Of a stretch of DNA of 28,225 nucleotides, positions 10,617 to 27,545 are shown in pieces. The notes under the pieces were generated by a model. The model saw only the letters and a program-made list of their open reading frames with translations, ran no database searches and had not been told where the DNA came from. The position numbers were made by a program, and so were the translations under genes. The stretch is taken from positions 1 through 28,225 of the IMG/VR virus record IMGVR_UViG_2526164619_000012; one strand, given 5' to 3'. Numbering within the stretch: the stretch's first letter is position 1; each line of letters starts with the position of its first letter. This DNA is from a virus. Lineage: Duplodnaviria > Heunggongvirae > Uroviricota > Caudoviricetes.

Positions 10617-11115
10617 TGCAGGATATCCGGCAGGAAACACTGAATGAATGCACCCGTGCGGAGCAGTCGGCCAGCGTGGTGCTCTGGGAAATCGACCTGA
10701 CAGAGGTCGGTGGAGAACGTTATTTTTCTGTAATGAGCAGAACGAAAAAGGTGAGCCGGTCACCTGGCAGGGGCGACAGTATCAGCCGTATCCCATTCAG
10801 GGGAGTGGTTTTGAACTGAATGGCAAAGGCACCAGTACGCGCCCCACGCTGACGGTTTCTAACCTGTACGGTATGGTCGCCGGGATGGCGGAAGATCTGC
10901 AGAGTCTGGTCGGCGGAACGGTGGTCCGGCGTAAGGTTTACGCCCGTTTTCTGGATGCGGTGAACTTCGTCAACGGAAACAGTGACGCCGATCCGGAGCA
11001 GGAGGTGATCAGCCGCTGGCGCATCGAGCAGTGCAGCGAACTGAGCGCGGTCAGTGCCTCTTTTGTGCTGGCCACACCAACGGAGACGGATGGCGCGGTT
11101 TTCCCGGGGCGTATC
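10616..11115 (+). pseudogene. L: Tail assembly protein L, N-terminal 156 codons (frameshifted and truncated at the inversion breakpoint)
   Basis: MQDIRQETLNECTRAEQSASVVLWEIDLTEVGGERYF then a frameshift in the T5 run at 10723-10727 (lambda continues ...FFCNEQNEKGEPVTWQ, which is readable in the next frame). Homology ends at ...AVFPGRI (11115). Confidence 0.75.
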
Positions 11116-11116
11116 A

Positions 11117-13476
11117 CCCCTTCAGCACCTCCTCAGCCCTCCGGTAGTCCTCCGTCCCGTAAGTGCCTTTCTGGCGACTGTCATTCTCAAGCTGTTGCAA
11201 CTGTTGCCGGTATTCCTGCCGGATGCGCAACTGTGCCTGGTAGCGCTGCCGCTGCTTATCCCCCATACCTGCAGTGGCAATATCCAGATTGTGCTGCTCA
11301 CGCAGTGCACGTTCTTTGTCTGCCAGCTGGCTGGTCAGCTGAACCGTTTTTTTCTCAGGTCGTTAAGCGCTGTCTGTTTCTGCAGCTCCTGCTGTTTCAC
11401 ATCCAGCAGCGTCAGCGCCTGAATCAGCTCATTCTTACGGGCCAGCACACTCTTTTCATCTGCCGTCAGCTTTTTCCCGTCCAGGTCGCTGATGCGCTGC
11501 TGCAGGGCCAGAAGCTGTTTATGCGCTTCAGTCATCCTTTCAGTGGCAATGCCTGCTGACTGTCTGGCAGCAGCAATCTGCCCTTCCACCTGTGCCTGCT
11601 GCTGACTGTACTGCAGCAATAACCGGGTGGCCTCATCATTACGGGTTGCCCGTGTATTTTTCTTAATGGCTTTTTCGTAACGTTCATTTTCACGCTGTAT
11701 CGCCGCATCCCTGACAGCCTAGTCGGCGTACTGCATGGCATTAATACGCGCAATTTCCCGCTGATGTCGTGCAGCTTCCGTTTCATTCATCCGGTTCAGC
11801 GCGGCATTTTCAGCATTCCGGCGTTTCTGTTGCTCCTGGTAATTCCGTTCTGCCTGCGCTTTTGCATCCTGCAAATCCTTCCGGCGTTTTTTCTCCTGAA
11901 GATCGTTAAGACGCTGCTGATCGTACTCCACCTGTGTGGAGGCGTTTGTCCACGGATATTTTTTCGCGCGCTGAATTTTTTCCTGTAACGCATCAATCTG
12001 CGCATCCAGCGAGTCTTCACGACCAATATTCATGGCCGCATCCCAGAACTGCTTCCACCAGTCAGACAAGGTTTGCAGCGTACTACCCAGCGCATTGAGA
12101 TTATTATCAATATCAGATGTGCGTTTACCGGTTTCCTCTGCCAGCGCAGACATGGCGATCCGGGCCGCATCACTGGACCGCCCCTGCTCCCCAAGGACGC
12201 GTATCTGCTCAAGCTGAGTGGCAGTCAAAAAATGCAGCGCATTGTCCAGCGCCTTCGCGGCATTTACAGGATCATCCTTCAGCCGCTTAAACTGATTTAT
12301 GGTATCGCTGACCGACTGGCCAACCGATCGCTCCATCTGTGCGGCAGCTTTCGCCACCATACCAATATCGTTTCCATGAAATGCCCCACTGCCCACCACC
12401 TGTGCCAGCGCACCGGCTGCCGCATGTTGCGTGATACCATTCCCGGATATGGCCCGGCTGAGTTTCCACAACTGCCCGACAGTGACACCGGCATAATGTC
12501 CCGTCAGCGCCAGCTGACGGTTAAATTCCTCGCCCTCCTTCCGGCCGTCATGCCAGGCTTTACCCAGACCCAGGACCGCCGCGACAAGTCCGCCAATAAC
12601 GCCGCCAGTCATCATGCCTTTCGGCGACATCAGTGCGCCTGTCCATCCGGCACGGTTAGCCAGCGTTATCCCGGATCCCCTCAGCGCACCAAAATTGCCG
12701 CGCGCCATCTGACTGATTAACCCCCCCAGCTCCCGCCGGGCTGCCGCACTTTTCAGCCCCAGCGAATGTGTGGCTTTTCCTGCCCGCTCCATTTTGCGGA
12801 TATACACTTCTGCAGCACTGCTTACCCCCAGCTGAGCCGCCCTGGCGCGAAGCAACTCAGAAGACGACAGATTCTGGCGGGTTGCCTGCTCTTTAAGCTG
12901 GCGGATAAACGCCGCTTTCTGCCGGGTGGCCTGTTCCTCTGCCTGCGTCAGGGCACGGGTTTTCGCCGTGATCTCCGAAATCAACGCCAGATAATCCTGC
13001 TGACCAACCCCGCCACTGTTTCTGGCCTGTCGGATCTGCTGCTGAATACGCTGTAATTCCTGAAGCCCCGCACCGGCCTGTTTCACACTGTCAATCTGGC
13101 GATAAAAGGCGGCAGCCGCTTTATCCTGCGCCTCCGCCAGTGCCCTGGCCTGCGCCTGTTCCTCGCGCATTTTCTGATTCAGGGCATCCACGCGCAGACG
13201 GGTTTGTTCCACCTCACGGGCCATGCGTTCATGAGCCCGTGCATTCTTCTCCACCGTCTGCGCATGGGCTGATGCTGCTGTTACAGCCGAAGAAGCCGCC
13301 TGCATTGTCTGCCGGGCCGCCTGAGTCTGACGCTCCATAAAACGCTGCATACGGGCAGAAGACCGTTCTGCATCACCGGCTGCACCATTCAGAAGGTTTT
13401 TGATACGGGGAATTTCATTTTTAAACTCTGCCGCATCAATCCCCAAATCAATGACCAGGTTGGCTATCTGGTCCAT
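11117..13476 (-). pseudogene. H: Tape measure protein H, N-terminal part (amber stop plus homopolymer frameshift, truncated at the inversion breakpoint)
   Basis: Starts MDQIANLVIDLGIDAAEF... (lambda MAEPVGDLVVDLSLDAARF...). In-frame TAG at 11719-11721, after which the same frame continues (...AMQYAD*AVRDAAIQRENERYEKA...). A second break in the A7 run (plus-strand T-run 11347-11353) is followed by a coiled-coil frame that ends ...EEVLKG at 11117. Confidence 0.8.
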
Positions 13477-16653: not shown

Positions 16654-17333
16654 TTACGCCGTACATTTCACCAGGCCGCGGTGATCAACTGGCGCAACAC
16701 CGGCGTCAATACGCACTTTCGTTGTCACGCCATCCACACTGAAGCCCTCCATCTGATCAATATATGGCGTATCCACACCGTTGAGATAAGCCACTTCAAT
16801 CGTATCGGAGCCTTTGGACGCAGCCAGGTAGAAGGTGGTCTGGCTGTTATCATCAAGACGAGGCTCTGCAATAACGGTCGCAAAATCTTTCACCGGGTTA
16901 ATAATACCGGCGTTAATGTCAGCCCCCTTGACACTTGAGGAGCGAATGACCTGGTTAGCAACAGACTCCATCGCCGTCGGTACCAGTACGAACGCAGGAC
17001 GAATATTCAGATGACGCTCCCCCTCTTTCTGAACACGCATCAACTGGCGGGCTTTATCCAGCGATGCCACGTCCATTGCAGCGCTCTCCAGTACGTTTGC
17101 ATGTTTCGCTTTATCGAACAGACTTACATTATCTGTGGAGATTTTCGGGTTAGACGTCAGAATGGCATAAACCAGATCGGCAATAGTGGATTTCGCCGCA
17201 CGGCCCAGTTTCATCGGGACATCGGTCAGCATATTCAGATCATCGTTGATAATGGCCTGACGGGTGATACTGAACAGTTCACCATAGGTCGCCAGTGCAA
17301 TCGTGGCCTGTTTATCTCCGGTAGTAACGTATT
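16654..17333 (-). pseudogene. Major capsid protein, C-terminal fragment (5' part removed at the IS1 junction)
   Basis: The frame is open from the IS1 boundary at 17333 to the stop at 16654; the sequence (...GELFSITRQAIINDDLNMLTDVPMKLGRAAKSTIADLVYAIL...) resembles a major capsid C-terminal domain. Confidence 0.55.
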
Positions 17334-17348
17334 GGTAATGACTCCAAC

Positions 17349-17852
17349 TTACTGATAGTGTTTTATGTTCAGATAATGCCCGATGACCTTGTCATGCAGC
17401 TCCACCGATTTTGAGAACGACAGTGACTTCCGTCCCAGCCTTGCCAGATGTTGTCTCAGATTCAGATTATGTCGCTCAATGCGCTGAGTGTAACGCTTGC
17501 TGATAACGTGCAGCTTTCCCTTCAGGCGTGATTCATACAGCGGCCAGCCATCCGTCATCCATACCACGACCTCAAAGGCCGACAGCAGGCTCAGAAGACG
17601 CTCCAGTGTGGCCAGAGTGCCTTCACCGAAGACGTGCGCCACAACCGTCCTCCGTATCCTGTCATACGCGTAAAACAGCCAGCGCTGACGTGATTTAGCA
17701 CCGACGTAGCCCCACTGTTCGTCCATTTCAGCGCAGACAATCACATCACTGCCCGGTTGTATGCGCGAGGTTACCGACTGCGGCCTGAGTTTTTTAAGTG
17801 ACGTAAAACCGTGTTGAGGCCAACGCCCATAATGCGTGCACTGGCGCGACAT
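17349..17852 (-). CDS. insB: IS1 InsB
   Basis: 167-aa ORF; one substitution relative to the other copies (VFGEGTL versus VFGERTL). Confidence 0.85.
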
Positions 17853-18046
17853 CCGACGCCATTCATGGCCATATCAATGATTTTCTGGTGCGTACCGGGC
17901 TGAGAGGCGGTGTAGGTGAACTGTAGTTGCCATGTTTTACGGCAATGAGAGCAGAGATAGCGCTGATGTCCGGCAGTGCTTTTGCCGTTACGCACCACGC
18001 CTTCAGTAGCGGAGCAGGAAGGACATCTGATGGAAATGGAAGCCAC
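17771..18046 (-). CDS. insA: IS1 InsA
   Basis: 91-aa ORF identical to the InsA of the IS1 copy at 9100-9867. Confidence 0.9.
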
Positions 18047-18181
18047 GCAAGCACCTTAAAATCACCATCATACACTAAATCAGTAAGTTGGCAGCATTAC
18101 CAGCTGTATTGAAGCATTCCATGAGGCTGAAACCAACCTGAATCACACTGTTTTCCGTCGTAATCAATGGGAGGTGCGCCC

Positions 18182-18415
18182 ATGATTCGCCGCGTCGTTA
18201 ATTCCCTGTATCACCGATACAACCGTTGCCCCCGAGTGGGGCAGTGGTTCACCACCAGCAACGGTCACGTTCTGCGGGTTTGCCTGGTCAATACAGAAAG
18301 CCAGAAGGTTGTCTGCCAGGTTCAGGGACGTACTCATACCCTGAGTTATCCGCTGGTGGCGTTTCAGTCCGGAAAAATGTTTAAACGCCTGGGAGATGGT
18401 TATGCGTCCGTCTGA
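18182..18415 (+). CDS. Hypothetical early-region protein (77 aa) immediately upstream of the O-like gene
   Basis: ATG at 18182 with a strong GGGAGG ribosome-binding site at 18169-18174; MIRRVVNSLYHRYNRCPRVGQWFTTSNGHVLRVCLVNTESQKVVCQVQG...; no family recognised. Confidence 0.4.
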   Translation: MIRRVVNSLYHRYNRCPRVGQWFTTSNGHVLRVCLVNTESQKVVCQVQGRTHTLSYPLVAFQSGKMFKRLGDGYASV

Positions 18416-18902
18416 TCTTCTGCTCGATTTTGGGCATCCGGTTGCTTATTACCCTGGGCTCGTTAAATACATGGGAAGTCCGCACGCTGTTATTTTCTTT
18501 GGTCAGATTTTTTACTGGCAGGATAAAGCACATGCAGCGGAAGGCGTACATAAAACGCGTGAAGAGATACAACACGAAACCGGACTTACATTTGAACAAC
18601 AGGCTGTAGCGCGTAAGCATCTTGTGTCCAGAGGCATTTTGGTTGAAACCAACAAGCGTCTTGAGCACAAAATGTTCTACCGTATAGATTGTGAGCGCCT
18701 TAATGAAATTATCAATGAAAACAATCAGTTTTCCCGAAATGGGGAAACCCGTTTTCGGGAAACTGTAAAACCCAATTTCGCGGAGGAGGGAAAGCCTTCA
18801 CCGCGGACACGGGAAACCCCTCGCCGCGGAGAAGGGAAAACCAATTTCGATCTTACAGAGAATACAACAGAGATTACTTCAGAGAATACTACAGAGAGTT
18901 AA
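18396..18902 (+). CDS. Replication initiator, O-like N-terminal (iteron-binding) part; ends at an in-frame TAA
   Basis: Occupies the O position upstream of the dnaC-like and dnaB-like genes; the 3' part of the coding sequence contains iteron-like repeats, as in lambda O. Confidence 0.55.
   Translation: MVMRPSDLLLDFGHPVAYYPGLVKYMGSPHAVIFFGQIFYWQDKAHAAEGVHKTREEIQHETGLTFEQQAVARKHLVSRGILVETNKRLEHKMFYRIDCERLNEIINENNQFSRNGETRFRETVKPNFAEEGKPSPRTRETPRRGEGKTNFDLTENTTEITSENTTES
18729..18865. repeat. Putative lambda-type origin of replication: five or six tandem ~22-24 bp iterons followed by an A/T-richer stretch
   Basis: Units TTTTCCCGAAATGGGGAAACCC / GTTTTCGGGAAACTGTAAAACCC / AATTTCGCGGAGGAGGGAAAGCC / TTCACCGCGGACACGGGAAACCCC / TCGCCGCGGAGAAGGGAAAACC share the core TTTCgCGG...GGGAAAaCC. 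Confidence 0.55.
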
Positions 18903-19310
18903 AACACTATTGGCGCATCCGCTGGCGCGTCTGCACCAGCGCGTTCTGCCCGACAGGAATATTCACCGGAATTTGAACAGGCCTGGCAGGAATATCCCAA
19001 ACGTGCTGGTGGCAATTCCAAGTCAGCAGCCTTCAAAGCCTGGAAAGCCCGTATCAGGGAGGGAATAAAACCGGAGACCATGCTTGATGGCGTGAAGCGG
19101 TATGCTGCCTGGGTACGTGCCACAGGAAATACCGGCACACAGTTCGTGAAGCAGGCTGCGACGTTCTTTGGACCCGATCGTCACTTCGAAGACTTCTGGC
19201 AACAGCCAGCCGCTCCCGGAGGTGGGCGACAGCGACAGGTCGATGTCCTGGCTGGCCTGGGAGCCATGTCTGACAAATTCGGTAAATCCAGTGACAAACT
19301 GACATTCTGA
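18903..19310 (+). pseudogene. Probable C-terminal part of the O-like initiator, in frame with 18396..18902 but separated by TAA
   Basis: The frame is continuous from the TAA at 18900-18902 with no ATG until 19080 (NTIGASAGASAPARSARQEYSPEFEQAWQEYPKRAGGNSKSAAFKAWKARIREGIKPETMLDGVKRYAAW...). Confidence 0.4.
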
Positions 19311-19320
19311 GGTGACAGCG

Positions 19321-20197
19321 ATGATGACGTTTAACCTGCGTGAACAACAAAAAAGACTACAGGCGCGAATGGATGAGTTACGGGCAGAGATTGCATTTGC
19401 TCAGAAGGGCGAAAAGCCATGGCCTTATCGTTCCTGCCTGATGCGTGAAGGTCGCGGATATTGCGAAAAACATGGCGAATATCACACGCATATACTGGTG
19501 TGGAGCGATCGTAATGGCGAGGACAGAGAAAAAATTTCATGCTGCCCTGACTGCTTAATCGCTGAGGCCAACGATTTGACCATGGAGCTGTCGTCCATCA
19601 AGGCGGAAGAGCTGACTGATAACGCCGGAATTGCCCTGCGTTTTCGGGACTGCGAGTTTGATAATTATCTGGAGGTTAATCCTGACGCAGCCAGAAATCT
19701 TGCGGCCTGTCGCCGCTATGCGGAGAACTGGCCAGATATGCTGGAGAACGGTACCAGTCTTGTTATGACCGGCAGTTGTGGTACCGGAAAAATCATCTGG
19801 CTGTGGCTATGGCAAAACACATCATCCGTAACTATCTGGCCAGTGTGGAGATCACCGACGTGATGCGCCTTACCCGTGCTGTGAAAAATTGCTGGCGGAA
19901 TGACAGCGAAAAACAGCGGATGAAGTTATTGAGCGTTATGCGTCAATGGATTTGCTGATCATCGACGAAGTTGGCGTTCAGTTTGGCAGCGCGGCTGAAA
20001 TGGCTATTTTGCAGGAAATTATCAACGCCAGGTACGAAAGTATCTTGCCCACCATTCTGATCAGTAACCTCTCACCGGAAGAGTTGTGGGCGTTCATCAG
20101 TCCCCGAATTGCCGACAGGATCACAGACGGGGGACGCAACTGGTTGTCGTTTAACTGGCCCAGTTACCGTTCTCGTATCAGAGGTGTGGCTGCATGA
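19321..20197 (+). pseudogene. DnaC-like helicase loader (AAA+ ATPase) with two homopolymer frameshifts
   Basis: Walker A GSCGTGK[NHLAVAMA] and Walker B DLLIIDEVG are recovered only by shifting frame at the A5 runs at 19788-19792 and 19909-19913 (each reads correctly as A6). Confidence 0.75.
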
Positions 20198-21585
20198 CAA
20201 CTCCAGTATGGCGTAACGATGACCTTGAAGGCGCTGTCATCGGCGCGTTCTTTCTGCGCGGAGCAGATCCTGAAGTGATGGATATTCTGGCCACACTGCC
20301 AGCGGACGTTTTTTCTGTACGAGCGTATCAGGATATCTATACAGGCATCTGCAGACAGGCCCGTGTTTCAGGAGTGATTGACCCCGTGCTGTTGTGTAAT
20401 GAGATGCCGGAACTTGCCCCGGTGATTACTGATACCGGGCGTAAAACCTGGGTGAAGTCTTCACTGGAGCACTATGTTGCAGCGTTGCGGCGCAATGCCG
20501 CACTGCGCGATGCAGAAAAAACACTGAATGAGGCGCTGCAGAAATTACGTGATGCGCATACCTGTGAAGCAGCTGAAGATGCCCTGAAGGATGCGCAGAA
20601 CATGATGGTCACACTGTCGACAGGAAAGGGCGTCATTCAGCCGGTACATATTGATGATGTGCTTCCGGAAGTGGTTGAGCGTGTTGAATGCCGGAATCAG
20701 GGGCTGGAGAAATCCAGGACGTTGATGACCGGTATTGATGAACTGGACGCAAAAACAGGCGGTATGGAGCCCGGAGACCTGGTATTCATTGCCGCCCGTC
20801 CTTCGATGGGGAAAACCGAACTTGCGCTGGACATCATCGACAAGGTGACTGAGCAGGGGCATGGTGTGCTTCTGTTCACCATGGAGATGGCGAACATCCA
20901 GATTGGTGAACGTATGGTGTCTGCGGCTGGAGGGATGCCAGTATCACGCCTGAAATCTGTGGCTCACTTTGAAGATGAAGACTGGGCGCGTTTCTCACAA
21001 GGGGTGGGGCGGATGACCGGGCGCAATATCTGGATGGTGGACCAAGCGAACCTGGCCATTGATGAGATATGCGTAACAACGAAACACCACCTGATTAAAT
21101 ATCCGGAAACGGCGCTGGTGGTGGTTGATTATCTCGGGCTGATAAAAACCCGAACCACGGGGCGTCATGACCTTGCCGTGGGTGAAATCTCAAAGGGGCT
21201 TAAAGGCCTGGCAAAATCCGGTGGTTTTCCGTTGATTGCGCTGAGCCAGCTCTCCCGCGGTGTGGAGTCCAGACCCAATAAACGTCCCATGAACTCAGAC
21301 CTGAAAAATTCCGGAGAAATAGAGGCGGATGCAGACATCATTCTGATGCTTTACAGGGATGAAGTGTACAACCCGGATACGCAGGCCAGGGGCATCGCAG
21401 AAATCAATATCACGAAACAACGTAACGGTTCTCTGGGAACGATTTACCGGCGTTTTTATAACGGACATTTTCTGCCTGTGGACCAGGAAAGTGCACGGGT
21501 GCTTTCCACTCCCATGAAGCCCGGCAATCCGCGCAGATACAGTAATAAACGAACTGACAGCAGTAAGATGGAGCGTTTCTTTTGA
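20194..21585 (+). CDS. DnaB-like replicative DNA helicase
   Basis: 463 aa with a Walker A-like ARPSMGKTELALD and DnaB-family C-terminal motifs (...LIALSQLSRGVESRPNKRPMNSDLKNSGEIEADADIILMLYRDEVY...). Confidence 0.85.
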   Translation: MTTPVWRNDDLEGAVIGAFFLRGADPEVMDILATLPADVFSVRAYQDIYTGICRQARVSGVIDPVLLCNEMPELAPVITDTGRKTWVKSSLEHYVAALRRNAALRDAEKTLNEALQKLRDAHTCEAAEDALKDAQNMMVTLSTGKGVIQPVHIDDVLPEVVERVECRNQGLEKSRTLMTGIDELDAKTGGMEPGDLVFIAARPSMGKTELALDIIDKVTEQGHGVLLFTMEMANIQIGERMVSAAGGMPVSRLKSVAHFEDEDWARFSQGVGRMTGRNIWMVDQANLAIDEICVTTKHHLIKYPETALVVVDYLGLIKTRTTGRHDLAVGEISKGLKGLAKSGGFPLIALSQLSRGVESRPNKRPMNSDLKNSGEIEADADIILMLYRDEVYNPDTQARGIAEINITKQRNGSLGTIYRRFYNGHFLPVDQESARVLSTPMKPGNPRRYSNKRTDSSKMERFF

Positions 21586-21839
21586 ACAACCAGACAATGA
21601 CTTTTACCCCTGAACAATTGCGTAAACACGCGCAGGAAATGCTGCGTCATGCTGAACAACTCGAAAAAACGGGCATAACAAAAGACGCTATCCGTAAAGA
21701 TATGGTACCCGCGCTTCGGGAACTGATGCAGGCGAAGCATCGCGCACAGAAAGCAGTAGATGAGCTGGTGGACTGTGTGGCAGAGCTGGAAACCAGAGTC
21801 GGAAAGTTTGAAAAACTGGTGCAGGAGGTGCTGCGCTGA
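21582..21839 (+). CDS. Hypothetical small coiled-coil protein (nin-region position)
   Basis: 85 aa, translationally coupled to its neighbours (ATGA and TGATG overlaps); no family recognised. Confidence 0.45.
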   Translation: MNNQTMTFTPEQLRKHAQEMLRHAEQLEKTGITKDAIRKDMVPALRELMQAKHRAQKAVDELVDCVAELETRVGKFEKLVQEVLR

Positions 21840-22213
21840 TGCGCCATGAGTTTATTTTACCTTATCCGCCGACGGTGAATACTTACTGGCGACGTCGTGA
21901 CAACACATATTTTGTATCAAAAGCCGGTGAGCGTTATCGCCGGGATGTGGCGCTTATTGTCCGTCAGCAGCGACTGAAATTAAGCCTGTCCGGAAGACTG
22001 GCGATAAAGATTATTGCAGAGCCACCGGATAAGCGCCGTCGTGACCTGGACAATATCCTGAAAGCACCACTGGATGCACTGACACATGCGGGAGTGTTAA
22101 TGGACGATGAGCAGTTTGATGAAATCAATATCGTTCGTGGTCAGCCAGTATCTGGTGGACGTCTGGGGGTGAAGATTTACCCCATAATGCATGAAGAGCA
22201 GGTCAAAAAATGA
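21839..22213 (+). CDS. rusA: RusA Holliday junction resolvase
   Basis: 124 aa; ...PDKRRRDLDNILKAPLDALTHAGVLMDDEQ... matches the RusA catalytic region (...[30 protein letters not shown]...). Confidence 0.85.
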   Translation: MRHEFILPYPPTVNTYWRRRDNTYFVSKAGERYRRDVALIVRQQRLKLSLSGRLAIKIIAEPPDKRRRDLDNILKAPLDALTHAGVLMDDEQFDEINIVRGQPVSGGRLGVKIYPIMHEEQVKK

Positions 22214-23031
22214 AACTGGAAGATTTACCGAAATACTACTCCCCAAAATCCCCTTGCCTGACCGATGCATCGGCCTCAACGTCAAAAGATGCGCTGAGTA
22301 TCACTGATGTGATGGCCGCGCAGGGCATGACACAGAATCGGGCTGAGATGGGGTTTTCTGCGTTCCAGGGGAAAATGGGCATCAGTATGAATGACAGGGC
22401 GCGGGCAACAGAATTACTGGCAGATTATGCACTCAGTCGGTGCGATCGTGTGGCGGCGTTGAGAAAACTTCCGGCAGAAATAAAACCGGTAGTGATGCGC
22501 ATTATGGCTTCGTACGCTTTTGAGGATTATGCCCGCAGCGCAGCGAGTAAAAAGCAGTGCCCTTGTTGCTATGGGGAAAAATTTATTGAAAGCGTAGTTT
22601 TTACAAACAAGGTCCAGTATCCGGATGGTAAGCCGCCGGTATGGGCAAAGTGTACGAAAGGTGTGTATCCGTCTTACTGGGAAGAATGGAAAAAAGTCAG
22701 AGAGGTGGTAAAAGTTGCCTGTCCGGAGTGTGGCGGAAAGGGTGAGGTTTCCACCGCCTGTAAGGATTGCCGTGGGCGTGGTGTCGCCATTCATCGTGAA
22801 GAGTCGGTAAAACGTGGTATGCCTGTTATCAGAGACTGCCAGCGTTGTGGTGGTCGTGGCTATGAAAGACTACCATCAACGGAGGCATTTAATGCTATAT
22901 GCGAGGTGACAAACCAGATAACACGCGCGTCATGGGAAAAAACAGTTAAGAAATTCTATGATGCGCTGGTGACCCGGTTTGATATTGAAGAAGCATGGGC
23001 TGAGCGGCAGTTAAAAAAGGTAACTAGGTAA
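22210..23031 (+). CDS. Q: Late-gene antiterminator Q-like protein
   Basis: 273 aa in the position after rusA, with several CxxC pairs (CPCCYGE, CPECGG, CKDCRGRG, CQRCGGRG); followed by a promoter-terminator pair and tRNA genes as in Stx-type lambdoid phages. Confidence 0.7.
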   Translation: MKLEDLPKYYSPKSPCLTDASASTSKDALSITDVMAAQGMTQNRAEMGFSAFQGKMGISMNDRARATELLADYALSRCDRVAALRKLPAEIKPVVMRIMASYAFEDYARSAASKKQCPCCYGEKFIESVVFTNKVQYPDGKPPVWAKCTKGVYPSYWEEWKKVREVVKVACPECGGKGEVSTACKDCRGRGVAIHREESVKRGMPVIRDCQRCGGRGYERLPSTEAFNAICEVTNQITRASWEKTVKKFYDALVTRFDIEEAWAERQLKKVTR

Positions 23032-23035
23032 CAAG

Positions 23036-23063
23036 GTTGATTTTTCCGGAATCTGTGGTAAAT
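23036..23063 (+). promoter_or_regulatory. Candidate late promoter (PR'-like) downstream of Q
   Basis: -35 TTGATT (23036-23041), 16-bp spacer, -10 TAAATT (23058-23063); position analogous to lambda PR'. Confidence 0.3.
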
Positions 23064-23111
23064 TCGTCATAACTATGGGCGTTTTATGCCTGACGTTAGA
23101 AGAGTTTCTAC

Positions 23112-23135
23112 AACCCGCCGCCGAGCGGGTTTTTT
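23112..23135 (+). terminator. tR'-like rho-independent terminator
   Basis: Hairpin CCCGC-CGCCGA-GCGGG followed by TTTTTTATT, about 50 nt downstream of the candidate promoter. Confidence 0.5.
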
Positions 23136-23174
23136 ATTGCGGAATTAATTACGGACCGTTATTATTCTGCTCCC

Positions 23175-23250
23175 GGCCCTTTAGCTCAGTGGTGAGAGCG
23201 AGCGACTCATAATCGCCAGGTCGCTGGTTCAAATCCAGCAAGGGCCACCA
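23175..23250 (+). tRNA. tRNA-Ile2 (anticodon CAU, ileX/ileZ-like; Met by sequence)
   Basis: Acceptor stem GGCCCTT/AAGGGCC, anticodon loop CTCATAA, T-arm GGTTCAAATCC, 3' CCA; closely resembles E. coli ileX. Confidence 0.85.
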
Positions 23251-23349
23251 TCACAAACCGCCATTAGCTTATCAGGAAGAGCAGACGACACGATAACAGG
23301 GTTGTTGGTGCGGGGGCGGGTCCCCGATGGCGGTCCATTATCGGTATTC

Positions 23350-23426
23350 AGCGTTGTTAGCTCAGCCGGACAGAGCAATTGCCTTCTAAGCAATCGGTCA
23401 CTGGTTCGAATCCAGTACAGCGCGCC
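23350..23426 (+). tRNA. tRNA-Arg (anticodon UCU)
   Basis: GCGTTGTTAGCTCAGCCGGACAGAGC..CTTCTAAG..GGTTCGAATCC..CGCGCCA; argU/argO-like cloverleaf. Confidence 0.85.
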
Positions 23427-23598
23427 ATATTCATTCTTCCAGATTCCTTCCGGCAGAGCCTTATACTGAAATATACCTGGCTCAGGATATTGTTGAAAAT
23501 ATTTTATGTTTGTCAAAAATAAAAGTTCTGTTAAGTATTGATTGGTAATGCTGCCAACTTACTGATTTAGTGTATGATGGTGATTTTAAGGTGCTTGC

Positions 23599-23874
23599 AT
23601 GGCTTCCATTTCCATCAGATGTCCTTCCTGCTCCGCTACTGAAGGCGTGGTGCGTAACGGCAAAAGCACTGCCGGACATCAGCGCTATCTCTGCTCTCAT
23701 TGCCGTAAAACATGGCAACTACAGTTCACTTACACCGCCTCTCAGCCCGGTACGCACCAGAAAATCATTGATATGGCCATGAATGGCGTCGGATGCCGCG
23801 CCAGTGCACGCATTATGGGCGTTGGCCTCAACACGGTTTTACGTCACTTAAAAAACTCAGGCCGCAGTCGGTAA
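23599..23874 (+). CDS. insA: IS1 InsA
   Basis: 91-aa ORF identical to the other InsA copies. Confidence 0.9.
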
Positions 23875-24296
23875 CCTCGCGCATACAACCGGGCAGTGAT
23901 GTGATTGTCTGCGCTGAAATGGACGAACAGTGGGGCTACGTCGGTGCTAAATCACGTCAGCGCTGGCTGTTTTACGCGTATGACAGGATACGGAGGACGG
24001 TTGTGGCGCACGTCTTCGGTGAACGCACTCTGGCCACACTGGAGCGTCTTCTGAGCCTGCTGTCGGCCTTTGAGGTCGTGGTATGGATGACGGATGGCTG
24101 GCCGCTGTATGAATCACGCCTGAAGGGAAAGCTGCACGTTATCAGCAAGCGTTACACTCAGCGCATTGAGCGACATAATCTGAATCTGAGACAACATCTG
24201 GCAAGGCTGGGACGGAAGTCACTGTCGTTCTCAAAATCGGTGGAGCTGCATGACAAGGTCATCGGGCATTATCTGAACATAAAACACTATCAGTAA
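23793..24296 (+). CDS. insB: IS1 InsB
   Basis: 167-aa ORF; begins MPRQCT where the other copies have MSRQCT. Confidence 0.85.
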
Positions 24297-24341
24297 GTTG
24301 GAGTCATTACCGTATTGATTGAGTGTTTGTTATACGGTCTA

Positions 24342-24668
24342 ATGGTTTTTTCAGCATTAAATATTTATCATTCATATGGTGTGGGTAGAGTGAATATTGA
24401 TGAGGCGTCGGGGTGTTTCATCCTTAGGCAGCGTATTGATATAGTCAATGCAGCACGAGCAAAGGCCTTCAGCCGTTTGACAGTTTTGTTCTGTACTCCT
24501 GATCGTCTTTCGGGAAGAGACGTTATTATTCTGAATAGTGATGCTATACAGAGGGTTTGCGATGAGTTCATGGTTGCTAATTCAGAATTATTTGCTCTTG
24601 TTCAGGAGTACAACAGAATAGCCAGGACCTGTGGTATGGATGAACTTCGGATTACTCATCTGGGGTAG
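24342..24668 (+). CDS. Hypothetical protein (about 107 aa) in the post-Q/tRNA cargo slot
   Basis: ORF with an in-frame TAA immediately upstream; first ATG at 24342 (MVFSALNIYHSYGVGRVNIDEASGCFILRQRIDIVNAARAKAF...); lower GC than the surrounding phage genes; no family recognised. Confidence 0.4.
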   Translation: MVFSALNIYHSYGVGRVNIDEASGCFILRQRIDIVNAARAKAFSRLTVLFCTPDRLSGRDVIILNSDAIQRVCDEFMVANSELFALVQEYNRIARTCGMDELRITHLG

Positions 24669-25063
24669 ATACATATCTGGATTATCACCTGTTACGGTAA
24701 AAAGTGATTGCTTACTGTTTTTGTGAATGGCATTGCAGCAGCCGGATAATGTCAGTGCTGGCTGACGGTGTGCTGGTGGCGGGTGTGGTAGTTGTTGCTT
24801 TCCCGTTGCTGAAAAAGAAAACGCCAGACTGTTAGCCGGGTATCAGTTAGCGGGAGAAATTTTTAAATACTTCACAATTCAGGCGGTTGACTGTTGTCTG
24901 GTTTGCGGGGAGTTTGTTAAAAGAAACTGGCATGGTGAATCCCCCTGTGCGGAGGGGCAATCAGCGAGTAGGTATATGGGATAATCGCGGATTCAGGTGC
25001 TGGTACTGAATTCACCGGGAGGCACCCGGCACCATGCAATGGCACATAGCGCCACTCTCCAGC

Positions 25064-25098
25064 CCCTCTCCGGAGGGGCTGTTTATATTGATTTTGTC
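25064..25098 (+). terminator. Candidate rho-independent terminator
   Basis: Hairpin CCCCTC-TCCG-GAGGGG followed by CTGTTTATATTGATTTT. Confidence 0.35.
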
Positions 25099-25115
25099 AG
25101 ATGTGAGTAAACTCC

Positions 25116-25451
25116 TTATGGACTTTGTTGTTTTAGTCCATAAGGACATATTTGCAGAGTGCAACGGTTATTAAAGCATTCATTCAATACGTTATCTGTA
25201 TTTGTAGGGCATTCCTGGCTGTTTTTGATTAAATTCCAGAATGTTTTATTGAATGGTACTACGTTATAAATGGTTACAGGTAGCACTTTGTTATTGAGCA
25301 TGATGCCTGTGTGAGTCAGTGTAAATATACTTTCAGGAGGTAAGAAAGCATCCGATTGATACCAGATTATTAATTTTATTTTACTCCATATGACTGAAAA
25401 AGATATTCCGCATGATGGCTGGATAACTGTATCAATCACAATCCACTTCAT
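25116..25451 (-). CDS. Hypothetical protein (111 aa) in an AT-rich island
   Basis: ATG at 25451 with an AAGGAAA ribosome-binding site; [34 protein letters not shown]...; markedly AT-rich codon usage; no family recognised. Confidence 0.45.
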
Positions 25452-25711
25452 TTAGTTTCCTTATTTATGCCTTGCTGGTGATGTTCTGAAAAGTATAAAT
25501 GATATTTTTGAATGTAAACCATAGAGCAGAATTATTTTTCTGATGTTGTTTATTGTTTATTTAAATGCAGGGTGGTTTATATCTCGTCTTGTAGTTTATC
25601 CATGCATATCTGCTTGATAATCAGGTTTTTATTTAAGGTATGGTTTTGTGTTTTTTCTGTATTACATGTCAGGTATTTTAAAGAATTATTTTTCAGATGG
25701 TGGAAAGAACC

Positions 25712-25900
25712 ATGGCATTTAAACACTATGATGTTGTCAGGGCGGCGCCGCCGTCAGATCTTGCGGAAAAGCTGACACATAAACTGAAAGAGGGCTGGCA
25801 GCCGTTTGGTAGTCCGGTGGCCATAACCCCTTATACCCTGATACAGGCGATTGCAGCAGAAGGTGATGTGGTGGTCAGTGGTGCAACTGAGCCGGAGTGA
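25712..25900 (+). CDS. Hypothetical small protein, possibly DUF1737-like
   Basis: ATG at 25712 with a GGAAAG ribosome-binding site; MAFKHYDVVRAAPPSDLAEKLTHKLKEGWQPFGSPV...; the YDV...PSDL...EGWQP pattern is reminiscent of DUF1737 as I recall it. Tentative. Confidence 0.35.
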   Translation: MAFKHYDVVRAAPPSDLAEKLTHKLKEGWQPFGSPVAITPYTLIQAIAAEGDVVVSGATEPE

Positions 25901-26104
25901 TACTACGTCATCGTACTGGCCCGGCATTCCAGGCCATAAAAGACAGTCTGGCAGTGGGACTAAATGCACTGACGCTGACGGATATTACCAAAAATGCAAC
26001 GTATGGCGTTGAGATAGAAAGTCTGGTGCTGGAGATAAATGCACCGGCATGAGGTGTACTGGCAATAGCGGACACTACCATTTGTTCTTTTTTTAAGCAG
26101 CCAT

Positions 26105-26911
26105 CTAATGATATTTTTCCCTGAAGGCTGCCGGGGAGATATTCCCCAGACGAGAGTGACGACGCTGACGATTGTAGAAAATCTCAATGTATTCCCGTAT
26201 TACTGAGATGGCTTCATCCCGGTTATTAAAACGATAGTGGCTCAGGCTCTCATTTTTCAGCGTTCCCCAGAAGCTTTCCATCGGAGCGTTGTCGTAACAG
26301 TTACCTTTACGCGACATTGATGTTTTCAGACCAGACTGCTCCTGTATGACCCGGTAATCGTATGCGCAGTACTGTGAACCTCGATCAGAGTGGTGGATTA
26401 GCCCGGCAGGTGGGCGCTGGCTCCTGAGCGCCATAAACAGGGCTTTACCTGTCAGCTCTTTTGTCATGCGCTCTCCCATGGCGTAGCCGACAATTTCGCA
26501 CGTATAAACATCTTTGATGCCAGCGAGGTACAACCATCCCTCCTGTGTGGCAACATACGTCAGGTCCGCCACCCAGACCTGATTTGGTGCTGTAGGAGCG
26601 AACGTCTGGTTCAGCAGATTTGGCGCAACTGGCAGATTGTGGTTCGGGTTCGTAGTCGCTCTGAACTTGCGTTTCTGCTTACAGCGTAGCCTTAGCTCCT
26701 TACGAAGACGTGCCAGTCGGTCACGACCAACGATGATGCCATTCTCTGCCAGCTCCGTCTGGAGCCGCCGGGTTCCATATGTTTCGCGAGTGCGGATATG
26801 TGCCACCTTAATCTCCAGTTTTAGCCGCTCATCACTTTGTTTTCTGTCTGAGGGTTCATGCTGTACCCAGTTGTAATAACCGCTCCTGGATACACCAAAT
26901 ACCTGACACAT
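26105..26911 (-). CDS. IS600 OrfB (transposase catalytic DDE part; expressed as an OrfAB frameshift fusion)
   Basis: 268-aa ORF with an IS3-family integrase core (...HSDRGSQYCAYDY...NCYDNAPMESFWGTLKNE...). Confidence 0.85.
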   Translation of the reverse strand: MCQVFGVSRSGYYNWVQHEPSDRKQSDERLKLEIKVAHIRTRETYGTRRLQTELAENGIIVGRDRLARLRKELRLRCKQKRKFRATTNPNHNLPVAPNLLNQTFAPTAPNQVWVADLTYVATQEGWLYLAGIKDVYTCEIVGYAMGERMTKELTGKALFMALRSQRPPAGLIHHSDRGSQYCAYDYRVIQEQSGLKTSMSRKGNCYDNAPMESFWGTLKNESLSHYRFNNRDEAISVIREYIEIFYNRQRRHSRLGNISPAAFREKYH

Positions 26912-26946
26912 CGCTTCAATGGGAAATTGTTGTCGCCATTGTTCGA

Positions 26947-27249
26947 TTAACGCGTATTTTTCAGCGACTCCTGTGCAAAATACGCTGTTGCTTTTTTTAA
27001 TATATCTCGCTCAAGGCGAGCTTCATTTAACGCCTTACGCAGTTGCAGAATTTCAGATTCCAGTTCAGCCACCGTGCGGGAACCAGGAGTACCGAGCCCT
27101 TTTCTGGCGGCGGTAACCCATTGTCCTAAAGTGCCTTCAGGAAGGGATAATCGGGAAGCGCCTTCACTGATCGAAAGTTGATTTTCAAGAACCGTTCTGA
27201 CAGCTTCGGCTTTGAACTCTTTAGAGTAACGTTGGTTTTTTCTGCTCAT
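26947..27249 (-). CDS. IS600 OrfA (transposase N-terminal helix-turn-helix part)
   Basis: 100 aa, MSRKNQRYSKEFKAEAVRTVLENQLSISEGASRLSLPEGTLGQWV... Confidence 0.85.
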   Translation of the reverse strand: MSRKNQRYSKEFKAEAVRTVLENQLSISEGASRLSLPEGTLGQWVTAARKGLGTPGSRTVAELESEILQLRKALNEARLERDILKKATAYFAQESLKNTR

Positions 27250-27500
27250 TATTAGCTCCTTCTGATGCCATTCTATTTCAGGAAGGAGTGTCCGTTAAAC
27301 TCAGGCTACCTCAGCATGCTGGTCACTTGCCGCAGGAGCTAATCCTAGTTTTATCGCAAGCCAGATGGGCCACACAAACGCACAAATGGTATTCAATGTT
27401 TACGGAGCATGGATGAAAGACAACAATCACGAACAGATAGAACTTCTTAACAGAAGACTATCTGAAAGTGTCCCATGCATGCCCCATAAGAAAGCGGGGT

Positions 27501-27545
27501 AAAATAAAAACTTGCAAAATCAATTGGTTTACCTTTAATCCCTGT
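27501..27545. other. Approximate prophage-host junction (att) inside the 5' end of mlrA
   Basis: MlrA-like coding sequence begins abruptly at about 27541 ([25 protein letters not shown]...); upstream sequence encodes only a partial mimic (SIGLPLI) with no start codon. Confidence 0.4.

Follow-up and report, generated by a model that had tools for sequence, protein, structure and literature searches.

An AT-rich island in a decayed lambdoid prophage very probably carries the anti-adaptor gene iraL opposite two stumps of one nanS-p gene

Hryckowian et al. (mBio 2014, PMC4045071) characterised IraL of CFT073 as an anti-adaptor of RssB; in E. coli and Shigella it makes RpoS more stable during log phase. 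[quoted passage not shown] UPEC and Shigella are significantly enriched for the gene, for which the published criterion is a match of at least 95% over the whole coding sequence together with distinctness from iraM (PMC4045071). K-12 IraM (YcgW) is likewise an RssB anti-adaptor that stabilises RpoS, and its identity to CFT073 IraL has been published as 58.9% (PMC4045071). In the IraM-RssB structure (PDB 8TWD), a PmrD-like beta-barrel bridges the RssB domains and excludes sigma-S (PMC10844676). IraM responds to Mg2+ starvation by way of PhoP/PhoQ and makes contact with both domains of RssB. IraL works in log phase in the absence of stress and, in two-hybrid assays (PMC4045071), binds the RssB N-terminal domain only.

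The DNA analysed here is a stretch of 28,225 nucleotides (the window). Its 600 bp of lowest GC lie at 25091-25690 (GC 0.318), 4.6 SD under the mean of 600-bp windows taken across the whole window (mean 0.528, SD 0.046), and the minimum elsewhere, outside 24000-26300, is 0.443. An earlier note on this DNA had called 25100-25700 conspicuously AT-rich, and its GC of 0.321 confirms that description; GC is 0.342 for the minus-strand gene and 0.292 for the 260-bp spacer, while DNA rightward of 25712 is back to ~50-53%. The open reading frames (ORFs) named in the note also exist, a 111-codon minus-strand ORF and a 62-codon plus-strand ORF that diverge from the spacer, with the plus-strand ATG at the start point of NanS-p homologues. 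Both have the plausible ribosome-binding sites that had been proposed for them, AAGGA located 7 nt 5' of the ATG on the minus strand and GGTGGAAAG 5' of the ATG at 25712, and the GTGA overlap with a second plus-strand ORF is likewise present. The note took the divergent ORFs for two unknown small genes; we find instead a characterised gene, iraL, and a fragment of a nanS-p pseudogene. We conclude with high confidence that the island is an iraL moron of a decayed lambdoid prophage and that the plus-strand ORFs are stumps of one nanS-p. Coordinates are collected in Table 1.

Table 1. Features of the AT-rich island and of the DNA to its right (positions are those of the window)
Feature	Position	Strand	Remarks
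STnc100-family prophage sRNA (Rfam RF02076)	24901-25090	+	Convergent with iraL 3' end
Minus-strand ORF (iraL by sequence)	25116-25451	-	ATG, 111 aa
iraL 5' UTR	25452-25484	-	33 nt; transcription start 25484
iraL core promoter	-10 TATACT at 25492-25497; TTTACA or GTTTAC at 25513-25519	-	
iraL 5' UTR + core promoter block	25452-25520	-	
Divergent intergenic region	25452-25711		iraL upstream regulatory region, to nanS-p start; GC 0.29
DUF1737 ORF	25697-25900 as listed (67 aa)	+	ATG at 25712 gives 62-aa form
nanS-p 5' remnant	25712-25931	+	Codons 1-62 (DUF1737), TGA 25898-25900, then ~10 in-frame codons (YYVIVLA...)
GTG-start ORF	25897-26052	+	51 aa; GTGA overlap with preceding DUF1737 ORF
nanS-p deletion junction	25916-25931	+	16-nt microhomology CTGGCCCGGCATTCCA
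nanS-p 3' remnant	25932-26049	+	Last ~40 codons, lectin-like C-terminal region; frame of 51-aa ORF
IS600	26050-27313	-	1264 bp; inverted ends TGAGGT.../...ACCTCA; orfA 26947-27249, orfB 26105-26911
Integrase remnant	27314-27502	+	C-terminal 62 codons, yehV/mlrA-targeting lambdoid integrase

The left border of the island is marked by an STnc100-family sRNA, which cmscan matched over the full model (1-206) with 132.4 bits (gathering score 47) and an E value of 3.5e-30. An intrinsic-terminator-like hairpin at 25060-25081, with 9 pairs and a T-rich tail, ends the sRNA. The STnc100 family is prophage-borne and related to PasD (bioRxiv 10.64898/2026.05.13.724894). The left flank is common to phage mEp460_ev081 and window 24312-25038 (99.6% identity) and the phage carries different cargo beyond it, which puts the left-hand boundary of the iraL insertion at about 25040.

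On sequence grounds, the minus-strand ORF is iraL, a member of the IraM/IraL/RssC group of RssB anti-adaptors. Its product is identical to CFT073 IraL (WP_000871291.1) at 111 of 111 residues, and the coding sequence differs from that of CFT073 at the single site 25266, a synonymous difference with zero amino-acid changes. It is thus identical to the characterised IraL and distinct from iraM, with 59.5% amino-acid identity to K-12 IraM; identity to the 'iraM' product of Stx2_EH1910 is 70.3%. The product scores above the curated cutoff of NCBIfam NF007393, the IraM subfamily to which K-12 IraM also belongs (162 bits vs 121, E 4.7e-48, profile positions 1-113 of 114). A PmrD-like beta-barrel fold, as for the K-12 protein, is indicated by a sequence search that matched PDB 8TWD chain A (IraM) with an E value of 9.1e-32 over residues 1-78. 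Pfam hmmscan found no family for the window protein even at E ≤ 1, unlike a precomputed table that assigns it to PF11183 PmrD, a label that fits the PmrD-like fold reported for IraM (PMC10844676). In hundreds of E. coli genomes RefSeq gives the same protein sequence the name 'anti-adapter protein IraM', and 1446 of 5426 complete E. coli genomes contain iraL-type DNA.

The upstream region is conserved along with the coding sequence. The RACE-mapped 5' end of the CFT073 transcript, ACATCACCAGCAAGGCATAAACAAGGAAACCA, matches the minus strand of the window, beginning at 25484. The hexamers given in Table 1 are our own reading of the sequence and leave a spacer of 15-16 nt; CFT073 has exactly the same -10/-35 stretch and the same Shine-Dalgarno sequence. 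Window 24312-26049 (1738 bp) has 99.25% DNA identity to CFT073, with 13 SNPs in all, five SNPs in the 260-bp intergenic region, and differences near the iraL start at 25485 (-1) and, in the 5' UTR, at 25463 and 25454. The window therefore has an iraL-type promoter and transcription start at the level of upstream identity, at least 96%, that is reported for iraL-bearing strains (PMC4045071). The RACE-supported promoter was not reported by a generic sigma-70 promoter scan; the scan returned two other minus-strand sites, 25559-25531 and 25400-25373, which were given no weight because their frequency did not exceed that in shuffled sequences. Our PhoP-box search returned one string with a single mismatch at 25547-25563, on the opposite strand and 63-79 bp upstream of the iraL start, in a T-rich region; such matches were not enriched in the window (6 vs 4.9 expected). 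When we looked for homology between the upstream regions of iraL and K-12 iraM, we found none: the two genes are related within the coding sequence only (70.9% DNA identity), hence the promoters differ, in line with the separate regulation of iraL that the literature describes; an effect of Fur has also been reported.

We propose that a sigma-70-type promoter of its own, within the AT-rich spacer, would drive iraL and that the 111-residue protein, with its PmrD-like fold, would bind the N-terminal receiver domain of RssB. RssB bound in this way would not hand RpoS (sigma-S) to the ClpXP protease, and even in exponential growth RpoS would last longer and reach higher levels. Given what the identical CFT073 protein does, IraL from the window is expected to bind RssB and to shield RpoS from ClpXP in growing cells. 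The coding sequence is intact and the promoter conserved, from which we infer that the window copy is expressed and active.

It is conceivable that iraL is intact but silent or non-functional, either because nucleoid proteins silence DNA of 29-34% GC or because of the three start-proximal SNPs, and the island would then be inert baggage of a dying prophage. The strong AT-richness of the island, the SNPs at -1 and in the 5' UTR, and the heavy degradation of the surrounding prophage by IS1 and IS600 are what such a reading would lead one to expect. However, the -10/-35 stretch and Shine-Dalgarno sequence are exactly those from which iraL is expressed in log phase in CFT073, the one difference in the coding sequence is silent at the protein level, and loss of iraL lowers sigma-S in S. 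sonnei (PMC4045071). The gene has also been kept in Shigella genomes in which IS1 replaced window 3794-24754, and Shigella as a group is enriched for it (PMC4045071). Weighing these points, we regard a silent iraL as improbable and continue with the reading of an expressed, active gene.

NanS-p is a phage sialate O-acetylesterase that joins a DUF1737 domain, a SASA domain and a lectin-like domain. Judged from alignments with such proteins, the two plus-strand ORFs of the island are the remaining 5' and 3' ends of a single nanS-p gene, now a pseudogene. The earlier note had itself named fragments of known genes, nanS-p among its examples, as an outcome that would overturn its view of the island, and for the plus-strand ORFs this outcome holds. 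The 62-aa ORF contains the N-terminal DUF1737 domain (PF08410, E 4.9e-17, residues 3-50) and matches residues 1-62 of the 631-aa Stx2_EH1910 NanS-p (yjhS) with 89% identity and the 618-aa SASA esterase of E. coli DA33133 at 60 of 62 positions. More broadly, these first 62 codons are 89-97% identical to those of 933W NanS-p, phi24B gp84, JLK-2012 yjhS and DA33133 WP_000874301.1, and the remnants occupy the same location, just upstream of holin, as nanS-p does in these relatives. Codon 63 is TGA in the window and TGG (Trp63) in the homologues, giving PE*YYV in place of the PEWYYV of DA33133; the site reads CCGGAGTGGTACTAC in DA33133 and CCGGAGTGATACTAC in the window.

The microhomology at the deletion junction aligns to two places of intact nanS-p, nt ~205-220 (CTGGCCGGGCAATCCA) and nt ~1712-1730. 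Overlapping blastn HSPs give a gap of 1507 bp relative to JLK-2012 yjhS and of 1510 bp relative to DA33133; neither length is divisible by 3, so the frame is shifted. The entire SASA catalytic domain and most of the C-terminal one went with the deletion, what is left is the 5' 220 nt and the 3' ~135 nt, and no SASA (PF03629) domain is found in a single ORF of ~620-645 aa. Since the catalytic domain is missing, the remnants are without esterase function. By tblastn, residues 8-51 of the 51-aa ORF (~44 codons) correspond to the C-terminal end of NanS-p/SASA esterases with 88.6-90.9% identity (JLK-2012, Stx2 phage 86, PPyecE_EH1910), and the DNA of the 3' remnant is 93-94% identical to that of relatives. 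The earlier note had IS600 interrupting this second ORF; the element does abut it, but clips the 3' end by replacing the final two codons and the stop and nothing more. The ORF is accordingly 53 aa in CFT073 and 042 and 51 aa in the window, where IS600 supplies the stop codon; beyond the cut CFT073 reads ...GCACCGGCATCATCATAA and relatives end ...APASS*.

Together, the nonsense mutation and the frameshifting microhomology deletion identify the GTGA overlap, and the apparent translational coupling it suggests, as an artefact of decay. The ancestral state is seen in E. coli DA33133, in which an identical IraL faces an intact nanS-p esterase followed by holin. The gene of the window would have been killed by the Trp63 TGG>TGA change and by a ~1.5-kb frameshifting deletion between 16-nt imperfect repeats. 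PGAP annotates the same 62-aa ORF in 042 and CFT073 as a pseudogene, 'incomplete; missing C-terminus'.

A different reading of the 62-residue ORF is that it encodes a functional stand-alone protein, for example a capsid-decoration or binding module exapted after the esterase was lost, in which case the island would still be a two-gene divergent unit. The ORF has kept its ATG and a plausible ribosome-binding site, and its stop falls just past the domain. According to a 2026 preprint, cleavage after residue ~57 frees the DUF1737 domain of phi24B gp84, which decorates capsid hexons, and ~2528 of ~3000 DUF1737 proteins are single-domain. Moreover, in at least 859 complete E. coli genomes a single location holds 80% or more of window 24300-26060, and every genome among the matches listed is annotated in the truncated way, with a DUF1737 protein and a hypothetical protein. 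Set against this, the stop is a single-base change in an otherwise colinear nanS-p whose in-frame codons continue beyond it, the allele also bears a frameshifting deletion of the kind typical of decay, and PGAP flags the ORF as a pseudogene. Its abundance reflects recent spread at >98% identity, not demonstrated purifying selection, and the capsid gene of the window is truncated by IS1, leaving no capsid to decorate. We therefore think an exapted function very improbable and retain the pseudogene reading, although the stub may still be translated given its start codon, its plausible ribosome-binding site and the mostly single-domain character of the DUF1737 family.

The surroundings of the island are those of a rearranged prophage. 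From the left, the window contains the C-terminal (NEL) portion of an ipaH gene on the plus strand, cut by the left end of the window, and then tail-fibre, lom, J and other tail genes and the truncated capsid gene, with most phage genes on the minus strand. An IS1 follows, then a DnaB-like helicase gene, rusA, Q and two tRNAs on the plus strand, another IS1, the iraL module, IS600, the integrase stump and mlrA; lysis, terminase and portal genes are gone. In an intact lambdoid prophage with a plus-strand int reading toward att, Q and the late genes lie on the minus strand. Because int of the window has just this orientation, the stretch that runs from the replication genes to the nanS-p remnant is inverted relative to its flanks. 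The IS600 region contains the Pfam domains rve, HTH_21 and related domains. The integrase stump is 98.4% identical by tblastn to the integrases of VT1-Sakai, JLK-2012 and YYZ-2008, and downstream of it come the att junction and a 5'-truncated mlrA in which MlrA domains were found. As a separate observation, one additional G compared with S. boydii puts mlrA of the window out of frame.

The earlier note had placed the divergent ORFs next to the integration site, and physically they do adjoin the integrase stump and mlrA/yehV; this position is not native, being created at an IS600 junction. CFT073 homology ends exactly at 26049, the IS600 border, and the DNA to the right of IS600 is absent from the four comparison loci (042, Stx2_EH1910, K-12 and CFT073), which makes the adjacency to int and att secondary. 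The intact relatives do not have the module at int/att, and in CFT073 the integrase lies ~15 kb off, at the other prophage end. The native site is a late-operon cargo slot between Q and the tRNAs on one side and the holin and lysis genes on the other, that is, the position of the stx locus. Gene order in CFT073, 042, DA33133 and vB_EcoS-640R1 is Q, tRNAs, DUF3927 ORF, iraL (opposite strand), nanS-p, holin and lysozyme, with nanS-p either intact or a remnant in these loci, and in Stx2_EH1910 the iraM-like gene and nanS-p lie directly downstream of stx2AB. Protein look-up showed the junction of truncated nanS-p, IS600, integrase stump and mlrA in S. boydii Sb227 (CP000036) as well as in other complete genomes; an exact search of a genome contig collection for the nanS-p/IS600 junction gave no match. 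We propose that the lysis and packaging genes were lost in rearrangements involving IS1 and IS600, which would also have joined the module to the integrase stump beside mlrA.

Next to CFT073, where iraL lies on the potB prophage island, the window has the same protein, DUF3927 ORF, STnc100-type sRNA region and AT-rich promoter region, the same transcription start and -10/-35 region, and the same truncated DUF1737 ORF and downstream short ORF flanking iraL. The two loci differ by the 13 SNPs, three of them at -1 or in the 5' UTR. Downstream, CFT073 has holin and lysis genes, in place of which the window has IS600 and the integrase stump at mlrA; the window, unlike CFT073, also has an IS1 between the tRNAs and the iraL module. 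The hosts differ as well, that of the window being a Shigella-type genome (ipaH is present) and CFT073 a UPEC strain. Stx2a and Stx2c phages (for example Stx2_EH1910 and phage 2851) share the order and orientation of an iraM-like gene and nanS-p and a partly conserved intergenic region. They differ in that the anti-adaptor is ~73% (DNA) and 70% (protein) identical, in that nanS-p is intact, and in that the stx operon lies upstream, at the place where the window has the DUF3927 ORF and the sRNA.

The recurrence of this arrangement bears on whether iraL and nanS-p form a unit. At least 80% of the 785-bp segment from iraL to the DUF1737 ORF is present in 43 phage records, mostly Stx2a/2c phages, at ~73% identity, and in ~300 more phage records nanS-p is the only part of the query with a match. 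Identical IraL proteins are found beside an intact (DA33133) or a truncated (CFT073) nanS-p. On the co-occurrence check suggested in the earlier note, the pair thus recurs, but the association is not obligate. What the note said would overturn its view was gene fragments with no conserved pairing, and this is only half borne out: the nanS-p pieces are indeed fragments, yet the divergent arrangement itself is conserved. Searching the five local products against PADLOC defence models gave no match. The non-obligate pairing and this negative result indicate that iraL and nanS-p are neighbours in a cargo hot spot and not a functional pair.

The suggestion that the divergent ORFs are cargo for toxin-antitoxin function or anti-phage defence, placed beside the integrase, draws on a generic accessory-cargo pattern, small divergent ORFs in an AT-rich prophage island, and can be set aside with near certainty, because there is neither a match to a known model nor obligate co-occurrence of the partners, one partner is the characterised IraL and the other a pseudogene fragment, nanS-p occurs so often without iraL, and the position beside int is an IS600 artefact. 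We keep the reading of an iraL moron beside a dead nanS-p. The note was right that neither product is a core phage function, and its idea of accessory cargo survives in the form of a horizontally acquired moron with a host-directed, fitness- or virulence-associated function; the defence and toxin-antitoxin part of that idea does not.

Little of this is new, since iraL and its effect on RpoS are published and the NCBI pipeline already gives the gene a name ('anti-adapter protein IraM') and marks the DUF1737 ORF as pseudogenic. The outcome is mainly corrective: the 'pair' is one live gene and one dead gene, the GTGA overlap reflects decay, and the int-proximal position reflects the IS600 junction. 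There is some mild evolutionary interest in iraL outlasting repeated IS-mediated erosion of its prophage in Shigella, a survival that fits the published enrichment of the gene in that group (PMC4045071). The block of sRNA, iraL and promoter, together with the nanS-p 5' stub next to the upstream region of iraL, might have been selectively kept in Shigella while IS1 and IS600 deleted its surroundings. We offer this tentatively and consider it unlikely on present evidence, which is that ~21 kb of the same prophage was replaced by one IS1 in Sb227-type genomes with the block untouched. If it were true, constitutive IraL-driven stabilisation of RpoS would be under positive selection in Shigella, and the dead nanS-p stub would persist as a carrier of iraL regulatory DNA. 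More speculatively, Q-dependent late transcription running antisense through iraL may once have coupled prophage induction to the general stress response of the host. About one in four complete E. coli genomes has the module, and in S. boydii Sb227-type genomes iraL and its promoter are retained beside the single IS1 that replaces window 3794-24754.

Upstream of iraL, the RssB anti-adaptor gene, a PhoP-box-like string occupies the positions 63-79 bp before the transcription start, and E. coli CFT073 carries the identical string TGTTTATTGTTTATTTA. Since matches to the PhoP box were not enriched across the window (6 observed vs. 4.9 expected) and the DNA around this one is T-rich, the string may be a chance match. 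PhoP regulates iraM, the K-12 paralogue of iraL. In a precomputed Pfam table (loci L005-L010) the IraL protein, encoded at 25116-25451 (-), is labeled PF11183 (PmrD), and a fresh hmmscan against current Pfam-A returned no family for it at E<=1. That label agrees with what is known of IraM, for which a PmrD-like fold has been reported.

Features of the iraL surroundings, the insertion sequences and the effector fragment
Feature	Position	Strand	Remark
IpaH-type effector, C-terminal NEL E3-ligase domain	7-885	+	Pfam PF14496, E 1e-77
IS1 copy	9099-9867	+	
IS1 copy	17334-18101	-	
tRNA(CAU)	23175-23250	+	just 3' of Q
tRNA-Arg(UCU)	23351-23427	+	just 3' of Q
IS1 copy	23541-24313	+	
STnc100-family sRNA (Rfam RF02076)	24901-25090	+	full-length match, 132 bits vs. 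gathering score 47
PhoP-box-like string TGTTTATTGTTTATTTA	25547-25563	+	KGTTTA-N5-KGTTTA consensus, one mismatch

Two tRNA genes follow the antiterminator gene Q, the usual set upstream of the stx/cargo slot of lambdoid phages, and IS1 now parts them from the iraL module. ARAGORN calls the tRNA(CAU) Met, whereas tRNA at this position in related RefSeq prophages is called Ile. On the other side of IS1, an STnc100-family sRNA closed by a terminator hairpin (25060-25081) converges with iraL, whose stop codon is 26 nt away; on the strand opposite the sRNA, RefSeq genomes carry a pseudogene annotated as "hypothetical protein, incomplete" over the same DNA. STnc100 and PasD sRNAs have been tied to phage esterase genes (2026 preprint, bioRxiv 10.64898/2026.05.13.724894).

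At the tail-fibre end of the prophage, the window edge cuts through the gene for the IpaH-type effector, and the NEL domain encoded there identifies the host as Shigella or enteroinvasive E. coli. The prophage has three IS1 copies inside it and a capsid gene that is truncated (16654-17232). Tail gene L (10648-11559) is on the plus strand, unlike the genes next to it, which are on the minus strand. The stretch that runs from the replication genes to the remnant of the sialate O-acetylesterase gene nanS-p, about 18396-26049, is in inverted orientation compared with the tail genes and the integrase gene int. A single IS1 stands in place of window positions 3794-24754 in S. boydii Sb227-type genomes. 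GCA occurs on both sides of IS600 (26047-26049 and 27314-27316), mimicking a 3-bp target duplication, but the flanks are different parts of the prophage, the 3' ends of nanS-p and int; the match could be a coincidence (1 in 64) or a clue to the origin of the junction.

Beyond int, the prophage cuts off the 5' end of mlrA, the curli and rdar regulator gene. The remaining reading frame contains an extra G at 28080-28090 (+), reading …CACTCGGCTCAA… where S. boydii Sb227 has …CACTC-GCTCAA…, and this one-base insertion shifts the frame so that the protein terminates …HSAQSTTP*. Because of the truncation and the frameshift together, mlrA looks doubly inactivated.
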